In this document: positions 3,642 through 7,970 of the stretch, one piece after another
Layout: each line of letters starts with the position of its first letter
Position numbering within the stretch: the first letter of the stretch is position 1
From: Flavobacteriales bacterium
Lineage (GTDB): Bacteria > Bacteroidota > Bacteroidia > Flavobacteriales > UBA7312
Assembly (NCBI GenBank): GCA_049890095.1
Contig: JBMHCD010000010.1
Coordinates: 48,881 to 112,880, forward strand
Length of the DNA stretch: 64,000 bases
Direction of reading: 5' to 3'
Position numbers and translations under genes: made by a program
Notes under the pieces: generated by a model
Database searches by the model: none
Seen by the model: only the letters and a program-made list of their open reading frames with translations
Told to the model about the DNA's origin: nothing

Positions 3642-3678
3642 TGCGTATCTTTTTTATTGATTAACTAAAAAAACTTTA

Positions 3679-3694
3679 TGCATAAAGTATGCCA
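3679..3694 (-). promoter_or_regulatory. Sigma54 -24/-12 promoter upstream of groES
   Basis: Minus strand reads TGGCATACTTTATGCA, with exact GG-N10-GC spacing, ~40 nt upstream of the groES ATG. Confidence 0.7.
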
Positions 3695-3716
3695 TAAAGC
3701 TTTTAATGATTATACT

Positions 3717-3772
3717 ATGACTTTTTTTCAGTTTTTATTAATCTAAGACATAAAAACAAGAAAAGTTGTCAG
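3717..3772. promoter_or_regulatory. Two putative bEBP upstream activator sites (consensus CTGACA-N3-TGTCAG)
   Basis: ATGACT-TTT-TTTCAG (3717-3731) and AAGAAA-AGT-TGTCAG (3758-3772), each 9/12, centres 41 bp apart; a better copy lies at 7956-7970. Confidence 0.45.
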
Positions 3773-4108
3773 TTATTCTTCTTCAGGAGTGTCTAAACTT
3801 GGTAAATCAGGAATTGCCTGTGTTGGTATTACAGCTTCGTCAATTTGCTCTTGAGCCTTCGACTGATTCGAAACACCTATCTCATTTCTTGGAATAGCAA
3901 AGTTAGAGATTAGGGTTAAAACCAATAAAGTGATGGCTAAGTACCAAGTTGCTTTTTCAAGAAAATCGGCCGTTTTTTTAACACCCATTACCTGATTACC
4001 TCCTCCAAAGGTAGCCGAAAGACCTCCTCCTTTAGGGTTTTGTACTAGTACCACAAGTACAAGTAGTACACAAGTAATAACGATTAAAATGGAAAATATT
4101 AAGTACAT
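3773..4108 (-). CDS. secG: Preprotein translocase subunit SecG
   Basis: Two TM helices flanking VLVQNPKGGGLSATFGG. Confidence 0.95.
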   Translation of the reverse strand: MYLIFSILIVITCVLLVLVVLVQNPKGGGLSATFGGGNQVMGVKKTADFLEKATWYLAITLLVLTLISNFAIPRNEIGVSNQSKAQEQIDEAVIPTQAIPDLPSLDTPEEE

Positions 4109-4110
4109 AA

Positions 4111-4812
4111 TTATTTATTTTTTATCAGCTTATTGATTAGTTCAATTTGGCTTGCAAATAAAGAACTTTTTTGGGGATATTTCAAGCTAAGTTCTAAATA
4201 TGCTTTTTTTGCCTTTTCATATTGCTCTTGCTCGAGATAAACTTTTGCTAGAGTCTCAGTAATAAAAGAAGTATTTTCTCTGACGCTGTTTTTTGCTTGT
4301 GCAGAAGCAGAGTAAAAGCTTTCTTTTTTAGCTTCTATTTTTGGGTTTTGCTCTATAAATTGTTCTATTAACTGCAGCTGTTTGTCTAGTTTTTTAGTTG
4401 GTTGTTTAATCTTTTTAGAAGTAGAAAGTTTAAGCCATTCATCAAAAGTATGCATTTCGGTTTCTTTGAACTCTATGGCTTCACCAATTTTTAGTTGCTC
4501 TTTTACTGTAAGAGCAGATTTTTGGATTTCTTTTTTTTGTTTTGCAACTACTTTAACTTTATTTTCAGAGCTATATTTCTTGCTAATGAGATCAAAAAGT
4601 CTACTTCTGTCACCACAATGAGTAGCAGTTATTTTAAGTTGATTATTAAATAAAATACTATTGCAGTTAGAAAGAGCTTTGCTATAAAGCATGTGAGTAG
4701 TAGAGCAATATGGATACATTTCTAGTATGCTCTTAATATCGTTCAAATCTTCAGCTTTTAATACTGAAGGGTCATTAACCCATTTATTATATGTTTCTTT
4801 AGAAATTACCAA
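4111..4812 (-). CDS. Conserved Bacteroidota TPR-like hypothetical protein
   Basis: C-terminal TETLAKVYLEQ...LSLKYPQKSSLFA motif; lies between lptE and secG. Confidence 0.75.
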   Translation of the reverse strand: MVISKETYNKWVNDPSVLKAEDLNDIKSILEMYPYCSTTHMLYSKALSNCNSILFNNQLKITATHCGDRSRLFDLISKKYSSENKVKVVAKQKKEIQKSALTVKEQLKIGEAIEFKETEMHTFDEWLKLSTSKKIKQPTKKLDKQLQLIEQFIEQNPKIEAKKESFYSASAQAKNSVRENTSFITETLAKVYLEQEQYEKAKKAYLELSLKYPQKSSLFASQIELINKLIKNK

Positions 4813-5303
4813 TTTGCTAAGGCTTTGTTAAAAATATCATCTACAAGTTCTTCTATAATTTCTTCCATCAGTTGATCTTCAATTTGAGATAAGTTAGCAT
4901 TACTATCGTAATCTCTATATCTTGAAAAATTACTGTGATAATTGAATTCTTCATCTAATTGGTTGGTGTATTTTACTTTTACGCCAATTTTTAGTCTGTT
5001 TTGTGCAGCAGTTTCGTCCGAACGAATGGCTATAGGCTTTATGGAATAGGAGCTGATTGTACCTTCAAAAATTAAATCGCCGTTTGTATTAATTATGGAT
5101 AAATTAGTCTGATCATTAAAACGGTCTTTTAATACTTCGGTCAGATTATTACTTAATGAAGGCGGTGATGATGCGGTATTGTTTTCAAAATTTTCAATGC
5201 TTACGCTTGTAATATCTTTAGAAATGGAGGCTCCTGTAAAGGAGTAAATGCCACACGAAAGGAAACCAGAAATAAGTAGTAAAATTAGAATGCCTTTTTT
5301 CAC
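4806..5303 (-). CDS. lptE: LptE-family LPS assembly lipoprotein
   Basis: Lipobox FLSC followed by GIYSFTGASI; ends DDIFNKALANW. Confidence 0.85.
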   Translation of the reverse strand: MKKGILILLLISGFLSCGIYSFTGASISKDITSVSIENFENNTASSPPSLSNNLTEVLKDRFNDQTNLSIINTNGDLIFEGTISSYSIKPIAIRSDETAAQNRLKIGVKVKYTNQLDEEFNYHSNFSRYRDYDSNANLSQIEDQLMEEIIEELVDDIFNKALANW

Positions 5304-6469
5304 AATTGATATTCTTTAATTTTTCTGTACAATGTTCTTTCCGAAATACCCAATTCATCTGCAGCATCTTTTCTTCTACCCTGATGGCGATCAAGAGACT
5401 CTCTAATCATATTCATTTCTTGTTCATGCAAAGTCATTATTTTAGGTTGTTCTTCAATAACAGGTTTTTTGGATATGATATTTTTCTGAGGAAGATCTAA
5501 TTGAATATCTTCTTCTAGTATAGAAGGCATATTGCTAATAGGGGACTGGTCTTTCATCAATTCTCTAGTAACTTTTTTGAGATCATTAAGGTCATTTTTC
5601 ATATCGAAGAGTACCTTGTATAGTATTTCTCTTTCAGAAAACTCATTGTCTCTTTTTTCTCCTTTAAACAGTACAGGTGTACTATTTTGCTTTGGAATAT
5701 ATTTTTTTAGTGTTTCTAGATTAATACTACGGTTTTGTTCTATCGCCGAAATTTGTTCGGATAAATTTTTGAGTTGTCGAATATTTCCAGGCCAATTGTA
5801 GCTTTCGAGTAAAGAAATAGCTTCTTCATCTAATCGAATTGAGGGTAAGTGATAGCGATCAGCAAAATCGGCACTAAATTTTCGAAATAACAGATGGATA
5901 TCTTCTTTTCGTTCTCTTAAGGCAGGAATTTTGATATTTACTGTATTTAGTCTGTAGTAAAGATCTTCTCTAAATTTTCCTTTAGCAATAGCGTTTTCCA
6001 TATTGACGTTGGTTGCTGCAACAATACGGACGTTTACTTTTTTAATTTCGCTTGAACCTACTTTCATAAATTCGCCACTTTCTAGTACTCGAAGTAGTCT
6101 TACTTGTGTGCTTAGAGGGAGTTCTCCAACTTCGTCAAGAAAGATAGTACCATTATCAGCAAATTCGAAATAGCCTTTTCGTTGTTCACTAGCTCCAGTA
6201 AACGCTCCTTTTTCGTGTCCAAATAATTCGGAGTCTATCGTTCCTTCAGGAATTGCTCCACAATTTACGGCAATGTATTTATTATGCTTTCGCTGACTTG
6301 CTTCATGAATAATTTTTGGCATAGCTTCTTTACCTGTACCGCTTTCTCCAGTAATTAAAACTGATAAGTCGGTGGCAGCAATTTGTAATGAAGTTTCAAT
6401 AGCACGATCTAATTTGCTTGAGTTACCTATTATACCAAACCGTTGTTTTATTTCTTTGAATTTAATCAT
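5300..6469 (-). CDS. Sigma54-dependent enhancer-binding protein (AAA+ plus Fis HTH) lacking an N-terminal sensor domain
   Basis: [22 protein letters not shown]-terminal [16 protein letters not shown] domain starts at about residue 12. Confidence 0.95.
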
Positions 6470-7917
6470 ACTAATCCTTGTGCTACTCCTATAAGTGTAG
6501 CGGAAGTACAGTCGTTAACTTTTACTAAAACATAGTCTCCCGCTTTGTAATTTTCTTTTGGAAAAACAACTACAGTGTTGTGAGTAGTTCTTCCATATAA
6601 TTTTTCTTTTGATTTTTTAGAAACACCCTCGACAAGTACCTTATGAACTTTATTTAGTCTTTGTTCTACTCTTAATTTTGAATGAACTTGCTGTAAATCA
6701 ATAATTTCTTGTAGTCTTCTTTTTTTAGTTTCTTCGTCAACATCATCCTTCAATTTTCGTTGAGCTTGAGTATTGGGACGTTCCGAATAACTAAACATAT
6801 ATCCGAAATCGTACTTTACGGCATCCATTAAGCTTAGTGTATCTTTATGATCTTCTTCTGTCTCTGTGCAAAAACCGGAAATAATATCCATAGAAATTCC
6901 GCAATCTGGAATAATTGATCTGATGGTTTTTATTCTGTTTAGATACCATTCTCTAGAGTAGCCTCTATTCATTAATTCTAACACTCTACTATTTCCGGAC
7001 TGAACTGGTAAATGAATATACTTACATATGTTGTCGTACTTGGCCATCATGTGTATTACTTCATCAGTCATATCTTTGGGGTGTGAAGTAGAAAATCGAA
7101 CTCTAAGATTGGGATCTACTAAGGCAACTTTTTCTAGTAATTGTGCAAAGTTTACACTTGATTTTTTTGCTTCTTCATCTAACTTATCAAAATCTTTTTT
7201 AAGTCCACCTCCAGACCATAAATAAGAGTCTACATTTTGACCTAGTAATGTAACTTCTTTGTATCCATCAGCAACCAATTGTTGACATTCCTCCACTATG
7301 CTCTGAGGGTTTCTACTTCTTTCTCTTCCTCTTGTAAATGGTACTACACAAAATGAACACATGTTGTCGCATCCTCGCATGATGGAAACAAAAGCTGTGA
7401 TTCCGTTTCCGCCAAGTCGAACAGGATTAATTTCAGCATAGGTCTCTTCTTTAGAAAGAATTACGTTTACTGCCTTGCGACCATCATTAACCTCATCAAT
7501 TAGGTTGGGTAAGTCTCTATATGCATCAGGTCCAACCACAAGATCAACTAATTTTTCTTCTTCCAAAAACTTTTCCTTTAGTCGTTCGGCCATACAGCCC
7601 AAAACTCCTACTACCATTTTAGGATTTTGCTTTCTTTTTATTGCATTGTATACTTTAAGTCGATTGCGTACAGTTGTTTCTGCTTTTTCTCGAATGGAGC
7701 ATGTATTCACTAAAACTAAATTTGCATTTTCAATATTTTTGGTTGTAGAAAACCCTTTTTCTTGAAGAATGGAAGCTACAATTTCACTATCCGAAAAGTT
7801 CATCTGACAGCCATAGCTTTCGATGTACATTTTTTTATCTGAATTAATACTATTCAATTCCAATGATTCCCCCTGTCTTTCTTCAATAATAGTTTTGTTA
7901 TTTTCAATATCTCTCAT
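6466..7917 (-). CDS. miaB: tRNA-2-methylthio-N6-dimethylallyladenosine synthase MiaB
   Basis: [15 protein letters not shown] radical-SAM motif, TRAM tail. Start moved to ATG 7917 because a -7 promoter element lies inside the longer ORF. Confidence 0.97.
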
Positions 7918-7939
7918 TTGTTCTTTTAAACTTCTGCTA

Positions 7940-7947
7940 CAAAAATA
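7940..7947 (-). promoter_or_regulatory. SigmaA -7 element (TATTTTTG) of the miaB operon
   Basis: CAAAAATA on + strand, 23 nt upstream of ATG 7917. Confidence 0.6.
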
Positions 7948-7955
7948 TAAAAAAA

Positions 7956-7970
7956 CTGCCATTATGTCAG
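7956..7970. promoter_or_regulatory. Near-perfect palindromic operator CTGCCA-TTA-TGTCAG within the miaB/bEBP promoter
   Basis: 11/12 match to CTGACA-N3-TGTCAG, immediately upstream of the -7 element. Confidence 0.55.

Follow-up and report, generated by a model that had tools for sequence, protein, structure and literature searches.

A sensor-less sigma-54 activator of the miaB operon as the probable regulator of chaperone promoters in a Flavobacteriales genome

Which protein activates the sigma-54 promoters of chaperone genes in Bacteroidota? Sigma-54 cannot open promoters without an activator, and the published sigma-54 chaperone promoters leave this obligatory activator unnamed. The question is raised by a 64,000-nucleotide (nt) stretch of a Flavobacteriales genome (contig JBMHCD010000010.1, positions 48,881 to 112,880 of the forward strand; hereafter the window), in which an operon that begins with miaB and encodes a sensor-less sigma-54 activator is followed by groES-groEL. 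The source genome has a size of 1.63 Mb, a G+C content of 31%, and a completeness of 97%. As reported, Flavobacterium psychrophilum possesses sigma-54 (SM4) promoters with mapped 5' ends at groES-groEL, lon, dnaK, grpE-dnaJ, and htpG (Guerin et al. 2021, PMC9723704), and a survey with a position-specific scoring matrix found predicted sigma-54 promoters enriched at GroEL/ES, GrpE, DnaJ/K, IbpA, HtpG, ClpB, and Lon in Flavobacteriia, Bacteroidia, Cytophagia, and Planctomycetia (PLoS One 2025, PMC12316311). With mapped starts and this wider enrichment in print, sigma-54 control of these genes in Flavobacteria is already known (PMC9723704, PMC12316311). However, F. psychrophilum has three activators, of which the responsible one is left open in the main text of that study (PMC9723704), and this main text makes no mention of a palindrome, an inverted repeat, or miaB. 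Similarly, the available text of the survey predicts promoters only, with activator and enhancer unnamed (PMC12316311), and Bacteroidetes, miaB, and groE are not mentioned in Francke et al. 2011 (PMC3162934). Our literature search, with supplements and most subscription journals outside its scope, returned no paper naming the activator, the palindrome described below, or autoregulation, and no named regulator of the heat-shock genes of Bacteroidota, a phylum dominant in ocean and gut. Thus, of a circuit for which the initial annotation of this DNA knew of no characterisation, the promoters are published, whereas the activator and its operator were not found in print.

The genome encodes sigma-54 itself (rpoN; Sigma54_DBD 181.5 bits, in a frame of 447 amino acids (aa)), whose absence would have spoken against the circuit proposed in the initial annotation. 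A PF00158 scan of the genome returned one activator (234.8 bits), and the next match, at 33.2 bits, fell in an 846-aa Clp-like frame. This activator is a 389-aa protein encoded at 5300..6469 on the minus strand (Sigma54_activat 232 bits, AAA_lid_14, HTH_8 50.8 bits). In a sample of 21 genomes of the same family, with activators 69-79% identical, 19 have a PF00158 activator, one each and always linked to miaB, including 13 of 13 high-quality genomes; the two genomes without a match are 66% and 78% complete. Because sigma-54 needs an activator and the family has a single one, the miaB-linked protein must drive the six sigma-54-type promoters of this genome, if they are used at all. A one-activator family therefore removes the ambiguity left in F. 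psychrophilum: the activator is assigned by elimination, to which the present analysis adds an operator, its helical phasing, and an autoregulatory copy. Moreover, no match to HrcA was found in the genome with PF01628, and no RpoH above the cut-off of TIGR02392 (best match 163 bits versus 323.1), so that neither of the textbook heat-shock regulators, sigma-32 and HrcA, was detected. We consider it likely that the 389-aa protein is a dedicated sigma-54 activator of a cytoplasmic protein-quality-control regulon of the heat-shock type, which would act through a palindrome and repress its own operon.

A Winogradskyella genome has two activators, the second of which (L189:6606-7769) consists of REC and AAA+ without a DNA-binding domain; therefore, the miaB-linked protein is the only activator there able to read a palindrome. 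In four Flavobacteriaceae genomes (L189, G021-G023), the second activator lies 5-6 kb from grpE-dnaJ, and one copy was examined for domains. This second activator near grpE-dnaJ is absent from the genome of the window and from its family.

Based on a regular-expression scan followed by a position weight matrix (PWM) trained on family groES and dnaK promoters, the genome contains six sigma-54-type promoters, at groES, dnaK, grpE-dnaJ, htpG, lon, and a 100-aa open reading frame (ORF). Good intergenic -24/-12 elements precede dnaK, htpG, groES, grpE (with dnaJ directly behind it), and the 100-aa ORF, and the element of lon is weaker (AGGTAT...TTGCA). All five proteostasis operons of SM4/B254 have -24/-12 promoters here, and the regulon comprises the same gene set as the SM4 co-expression cluster B254 described for F. 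psychrophilum in the main text of PMC9723704. In contrast, clpB, skp, and the gliding genes, which this text includes among the SM4 targets, are not targets here. No envelope gene occurs among the PWM hits, and the targets suggest cytoplasmic protein damage, not envelope stress.

In sigma-54 promoters, GG and GC are 10 nt apart in a consensus close to TGGCAC-N5-TTGCW. The groESL promoter, TGGCATACTTTATGCA (3679..3694, minus strand), has this spacing as a GG-N10-GC element, and its PWM score of 20.3 is the fourth best genome-wide. Of 19 family groES loci, 18 have a TGGCA-type element in the corresponding position. The groES promoters of relatives mostly read TGGCAY-N5-nnGA or nnGT and not the canonical GC at -12 (loci L028-L043, L089-L160); the dnaK and grpE promoters mostly keep TTGC. 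With the C of the GC (3680) as -12, transcription would start at 3668, and the probable 5' end of the groES transcript lies at 3666..3668 on the minus strand. Four metatranscriptome runs from one study contain parts of groES and groEL as assembled contigs, of which two, covering 3350-3666 and 3357-3666 with 0 mismatches, both stop at 3666 with no loose end. These ends, 2 nt from the predicted +1, are a weak hint, since contigs cannot prove a 5' end. The four runs hold no contig on secG or upstream of 3734, and such missing cover proves nothing. Furthermore, TAnnTTTG occurs on neither strand of the gap between groES and secG, and the 64-kb window has no CIRCE-like (controlling inverted repeat of chaperone expression) site at up to 3 mismatches.

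Upstream of this promoter lie two candidate activator sites, both on the minus strand. The proximal site, CTGAAAAAAAGTCAT (3717..3731), ends 22 nt before TGGCA with its centre at about -56, and the distal site, CTGACAACTTTTCTT (3758..3772), directly follows the secG stop codon and ends 63 nt before TGGCA with its centre at about -97. The centres are thus 41 bp apart. Each site matches 9 of 12 positions of CTGACA-N3-TGTCAG, as do 355 genome positions, and the two sites taken alone are weak. They are more than chance because of their position and conservation; the proximal 15-mer is retained at an equal distance in most family genomes.

The 15-bp palindrome CTGnCA-N3-TGnCAG accompanies all six sigma-54-type promoters. 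The 12-position consensus CTGACA-N3-TGTCAG of the initial annotation had been derived from groES and miaB only. It has 35 genome sites at 10/12 or better, and four of them precede the sigma-54 promoters of dnaK, grpE, htpG, and the small ORF at distances of no more than 80 bp; the picking out of these four promoters is an independent test. Because comparison with kin showed positions 4 and 12 to be free, the 10-position consensus CTGNCANNNTGNCAG was used thereafter; at 8/10 it matches 265 of 1,630,322 genome positions. The 516 positions in front of the six promoters contain six sites that score 8/10 or more, versus 0.084 expected (P = 4e-10); some of the sites counted had served to refine the consensus, which makes this count partly circular. 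Among 104 sites of kin and wider loci, TGnCA-N3-TGnCA forms the core, with T2 and A6 in 104 of 104, C13 in 101, and T10 in 99.

At lon, the best palindrome, CTGTCATAATGACAT (C8:156367-156381), is a leader element that follows the sigma-54 promoter, and 10-17 nt separate it from the start codon, both here and in five of five distant genomes (loci L184-L188). It may serve for downstream activation or as a brake. Similarly, FleQ and FlrC, which control flagellar genes in Pseudomonas and Vibrio, have sites downstream of sigma-54 promoters; however, they belong to another branch of the activator family and govern another regulon. The 100-aa ORF (C9:237221-237523, minus strand) is monocistronic behind its sigma-54 promoter, with the palindrome 8-11 nt upstream and a terminator after the ORF. 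Of 81 genomes sampled from the order, 8 have it, among them six of six sampled kin, and the layout of site and promoter is kept in 8/8 (L204-L211). Pfam and Atlas searches gave no match for its product, and the ORF is a predicted lineage-specific member of the regulon. Two further strong palindromes, at C5:99516 (72 nt before trmD) and C11:104890 (between convergent genes), were treated as possible chance matches because no sigma-54 promoter is nearby, and another, at C5:39912, appears to lie inside a short ribosomal-protein gene.

Conservation was assessed in kin, with the own genome left aside, and in wider loci. Among kin, 13 of 17 groES loci and 15 of 16 dnaK loci have a site scoring 8/10 or more no farther than 90 nt from TGGCA, versus means of 0.25 and 0.16 and maxima of 3 and 1, respectively, in 500 shuffles. 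Among the wider groES loci, 65 of 66 have a site, and the shuffle means were 0.76 or lower over all sets. Within the family, the layout at groES and dnaK is fixed, and in its commonest forms a distal site comes 6-7 nt ahead of a proximal one. At groES, about 21-23 nt separate the end of the proximal site from TGGCA, and at dnaK this distance is mostly about 32-33 or 41 nt. In five distant genomes (Salinimicrobium, Aquimarina, Flavobacterium, Winogradskyella, and Paludibacter), a copy of the palindrome precedes the sigma-54 promoter of dnaK (5/5), grpE (5/5), and htpG (4/5), mostly ending 11-12 nt before TGGCA, and lon has a sigma-54 promoter in all five.

The gaps from site end to TGGCA cluster at 11, 21-22, 31-33, 41-44, 53-55, and 62-64 nt, and the gaps of 22 and 63 nt at groES in the window fall within the 21-22 and 62-64 classes. 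For 104 sites, the mean resultant length is 0.84 at a period of 10.5, versus 0.30 at a period of 7 and 0.18 at a period of 13; as kin are not independent, this statistic and the P values are overstated. The first regular-expression scan found false promoters in the secG terminator hairpins of Flavobacteriaceae (GCCAGC...GCTGGCATTTTTT), after which the promoter search was narrowed, and some sites from such hairpins may remain counted in the wide phasing set. In many Flavobacteriaceae (L089-L160), the secG terminator hairpin holds a palindrome-like site, for example ATGCCGACTTGTCAT, 31-33 nt from TGGCA and in phase. Such a hairpin-borne site could act as a distal site, or the hairpin could resemble one by coincidence.

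The pairing of activator and site also persists under genome reduction. In five reduced genomes of the same order (0.34-0.63 Mb), rpoN and the activator are present in 5/5, and the three loci examined keep miaB-activator-groES-groEL. Their groES genes have a perfect palindrome, ATGACATTATGTCAT, 22 nt before TGGCAT, or ATGTCATAATGACAT, 41 nt before it. At the locus of the 0.34-Mb genome, tblastn found no lptE, secG, or gene for the 233-aa protein that lies between these two in the window, and the activator and the groES site are kept. Across the phylum, 272 of the 301 high-quality genomes sampled, or 122 of 144 genera, had a match to a query built from the last 120 residues of the activator; this is an upper bound for orthologs, since some matches cover the HTH (helix-turn-helix) part only, and the matched frames mostly measure 380-445 aa. 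One family (f29) was matched in only 1 of 17 genomes.

Given these data, it is highly improbable that the matches are chance products of AT-rich intergenic DNA and that groESL is transcribed by read-through from the miaB operon. The scores of only 9/12 at groES, the G+C content of 31%, and the lack of a terminator-like hairpin between secG and groES in this genome would suit such an account. However, it is opposed by the enrichment versus both genome background and shuffles, by positions and sequences that are conserved among genera and in reduced genomes, and by the mapped starts published at homologous promoters in the main text of PMC9723704.

The best copy of the palindrome lies elsewhere, in front of the activator's own operon. 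This putative autoregulatory operator, CTGCCATTATGTCAG (7956..7970, plus-strand reading), is the sole 10/10 match to CTGNCANNNTGNCAG among all genome positions. It is followed by TATTTTTG (7940..7947, minus strand), read as the -7 box of the sigmaA promoter of the miaB operon, and in kin the TAnnTTTG box likewise comes after the operator; the Bacteroidetes sigmaA consensus has elements at -33 and -7. In 18 of 18 family loci, the operator reads CTGYCA-N3-TGKCAG with 10/10 matches and ends 7-8 nt before the TAnnTTTG box. Farther away, in 67 loci with a miaB gene and an activator 57-62% identical (including Salinimicrobium, Aquimarina, Flavobacterium, Zunongwangia, and Winogradskyella), it matches 10/10 in 11, at least 9/10 in 54, and at least 8/10 in all 67. 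In the distant loci, a TTTG within the operator lies about 20 nt before a TAtcTTTG box, which is the place expected for a -33 element. Thus, the best palindrome copy overlies the sigmaA core promoter of the miaB operon at all loci examined except those of the reduced genomes. In most family genomes (loci L064-L079), the region between the divergent topA and miaB has another conserved and perfect palindrome, TTATATTATAAATAATATAA, about 25 nt from the operator on its upstream side; it is absent or degenerate in the window at 7985-8010.

These positions bring up a different account, in which the palindrome is the operator of a separate repressor, in the role of HrcA or HspR, and the activator binds no DNA or uses other sites. 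In many genera a site adjoins the -24 element, with 11 nt between the two, the lon site lies in the leader downstream of its promoter, the miaB site covers a sigmaA core promoter, and the pairing of activator and palindrome comes from sequence comparison. Nevertheless, we consider a separate repressor unlikely. The nearly invariant HTH of the activator needs a target; a regulator whose own promoter bears the best copy is usually autoregulated; the strict phasing over 11-64 nt is expected of an activator facing the polymerase and would be superfluous for occlusion from -97; and the genomes of 0.34-0.63 Mb keep site, activator, and rpoN together. The activator is the most economical binder of the palindrome because of its invariant HTH, the best palindrome on its own promoter, and the lack of a DNA-binding domain in the second activator examined.

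The elements drawn on here, with their statistics and conservation and the lone activator, are direct observations, from which we infer palindrome binding, activation, and autorepression by the 389-aa protein. The initial annotation had placed the GG-N10-GC promoter, two 15-bp sites 41 bp apart, and the copy at 7956-7970, all of which are found at these coordinates. Its reading of the gap before groES as free of CIRCE and TAnnTTTG agrees with our searches, and the GAFTGA-intact, sensor-less protein that it described in the miaB operon is borne out by GAFTGA at residues 88-93 and an AAA+ domain starting at residue 13. It had further proposed that this protein activates groESL and represses its own operon. 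Comparative evidence argues for this proposal, namely the sole activator, the palindrome at five proteostasis operons, and an operator over the miaB promoter that is conserved in 18/18 family and 67/67 distant loci (at least 8/10). Its overall interpretation is supported as regards this core circuit, but not as regards an envelope regulon, a regulator with tetratricopeptide repeats (TPR), or a wholly uncharacterised circuit.

The architecture of the activator is consistent with this role. The AAA+ domain covers residues 13-263 (PF00158 matched at positions 1-167 of 168, 232.3 bits), with Walker A GESGTGKE at residues 41-48 and Walker B FLDEVGE at 110-116; in the GAFTGA loop, G88, F90, T91, G92, and A93 are invariant in 41 sequences. 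An N-terminal regulatory domain is lacking, since the AAA+ match starts at residue 13 of 389, and the orthologs measure 380-437 aa. The C-terminal HTH (residues 347-387, HTH_8) is nearly invariant. Between the two lies a segment at about 277-305 (window 5555-5640), which in 80 orthologs is as invariant as the ATPase core and the HTH; it forms an amphipathic, nearly invariant helix outside the AAA+ and HTH Pfam models. The AlphaFold2 model, with a mean predicted local distance difference test (pLDDT) score of 78.5, shows a confident AAA+ domain, a lone helix at 279-307 (pLDDT about 70-74), and a confident three-helix HTH. Stretches with pLDDT below 50 at 263-277 and 308-343 flank the lone helix and are read as disordered linkers. 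Solved structures match the AAA+ core only (residues 5-254), with none for the helix or HTH part at E <= 1e-30. Judged by these features, the protein lacks a classical sensor and contains a conserved helix element of no assigned role.

PspF of Escherichia coli is likewise sensor-less; it is held by PspA and binds an upstream site that also represses pspF. The present activator resembles PspF in having no N-terminal sensor, an AAA+ domain with GAFTGA followed by a C-terminal HTH, a stress regulon, and probable negative autoregulation via a site shared with a sigma-70-type promoter. However, it is not an ortholog: it falls below the cut-offs of all named equivalogs (TIGR02974 (PspF) 265.5 versus 443.55 bits; PRK11608 213.1 versus 529), it has the extra invariant helix between AAA+ and HTH, and its targets are chaperones and not pspA. 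In addition, PspF uses sites at about -80 to -126 with IHF, whereas the sites here are promoter-proximal and phased.

Based on these observations, a mechanism can be proposed. The C-terminal Fis-type HTH, as a dimer, most likely binds (C/A)TGnCA-N3-TGnCA(G/T). One to three such sites close to the -24/-12 promoter, on the same helix face, would recruit the protein to groESL, dnaK, grpE-dnaJ, htpG, lon, and the small ORF, and from these phased sites the AAA+ ring would remodel the sigma-54 holoenzyme. A linker of about 80 residues might be long enough for the ring to get to the -12 region when the site is centred at -45. Binding at the strongest site, over the activator's own sigmaA core promoter, should keep the activator level low by negative autoregulation. 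With sites centred about 45, 56, 66, 77, and 97 nt upstream and in phase, the arrangement differs from classical distant enhancers; if the proposal is true, it would inform how an AAA+ ring can reach sigma-54 without DNA looping.

The least certain step is the activity switch. A sensor domain is absent, and the nearly invariant helix at about 279-305, between disordered linkers, would be the candidate element. It offers a specific target in the search for the signal input. Our preferred guess, held tentatively and with more doubt than conviction, is feedback on this helix by free chaperones (DnaK/DnaJ or GroEL), modelled on sigma-32, HspR, and HrcA. The loops of sigma-32 with DnaK and GroEL, HrcA-CIRCE with GroEL, and HspR-HAIR with DnaK control the same functional regulon of groESL, dnaK, grpE, dnaJ, htpG, and lon. 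In contrast to these loops, which use a sigma-70-family factor or a repressor, the predicted regulator here is an ATP-dependent sigma-54 activator.

A further account starts from the operon itself, in which lptE, secG, and the gene of the 233-aa protein (4111..4812, minus strand) invariably accompany the activator. The initial annotation had suggested an envelope-stress regulon with this TPR protein as a trans-regulator, and in its fullest form the system would be an envelope or secretion stress response in which the TPR-like protein is a PspA-like trans controller of the activator. The 233-aa protein has no signal peptide apparent in its sequence, conserved N- and C-terminal blocks, and no assigned function, as would suit such a controller, and the SM4 promoters of F. 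psychrophilum respond to blood agar, osmotic pressure, and plasma according to the main text of PMC9723704. However, the sigma-54 targets found here are all cytoplasmic chaperone or protease genes plus one small ORF, with no envelope gene among them, and lptE and secG represent conserved synteny and are not sigma-54 targets. Moreover, the activator is no PspF equivalog at 265.5 bits, and the 0.34-Mb genome keeps activator and groES site where lptE, the 233-aa gene, and secG were not found. Nothing was found that links the 233-aa protein to regulation. Complex prediction for it and the activator, both entered as alignments, scored 0.00 in two runs, a result that speaks neither for nor against an interaction. 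The envelope account is thus quite improbable, more so than a separate repressor. The 233-aa protein is restricted to Bacteroidota and has one C-terminal TPR-like hairpin; TPR models remain sub-threshold (E 0.009-0.13), the Pfam search gave no family at threshold, and its Atlas matches are hypothetical proteins of Bacteroidota.

Several points weigh against assigning the regulon to the 389-aa protein in the form given above. The -12 positions of the family groES promoters comprise 7 GC, 9 GA, and 2 GT (n = 18), so that GA or GT makes up 11 of 18. The Clp-type ATPase gene of this genome (846 aa, C8:321188-323725) has neither a sigma-54 promoter nor a palindrome in the 300 nt upstream, unlike clpB, which is an SM4 target in F. 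psychrophilum. To these are added the partial circularity of the enrichment count and the dependence among kin noted above. Autoregulation is not universal, as the three loci examined from reduced genomes showed no operator in front of miaB. Palindromes near -45, in the lon leader, and over a sigmaA promoter would also suit the operator of a repressor, and the chaperone-titration step is drawn from analogy.

A still broader generalization can be formulated, which we regard as doubtful, more so than the chaperone feedback that it includes. The sensor-less protein would be the master heat-shock activator of Bacteroidota, a third wiring beside sigma-32 and HrcA/HspR/CtsR, with looping-free phased sites, a tether of about 80 linker residues, chaperone load sensed by the helix, and self-limitation on a sigmaA promoter, and it would be kept even in insect-symbiont-sized genomes of 0.34 Mb. 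The narrower assignment of the regulon to the 389-aa protein yields a compact test set of one protein, one 15-bp site, and six promoters.

As for the locus as a whole, the operon runs on the minus strand in the order miaB-activator-lptE-233-aa gene-secG and is followed by a 131-nt gap and then groES-groEL. Profile matches confirm the gene calls of the initial annotation for miaB (6466..7917; TIGR01574, 449.5 bits), the activator, lptE (4806..5303; LptE, 72.7 bits), secG (3773..4108; SecG, 77 bits), groES (3372..3641; Cpn10, 119 bits; NCBIfam GroES), and groEL (1727..3361; Cpn60_TCP1, 250 bits), all on the minus strand. The start of miaB, the first gene of the operon, was revised: it is most likely the ATG at 7917 (MRDIENNK) rather than 7962, because kin align from 7917 and the long ORF has its Pfam match only from residue 44 onwards. 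The gene order miaB-activator-lptE-233-aa gene-secG-groES-groEL is complete in 63 of 80 loci; the remaining 17 have cut contigs or a secG under the tblastn threshold, and a different order occurs in 0 loci. Beyond this cluster, the adjacent ORFs at window positions 637-1269 and 1229-1495 (minus strand; region 637-1500) overlap around an A-run near 1250 and may be one gene broken by a frameshift or an assembly error.

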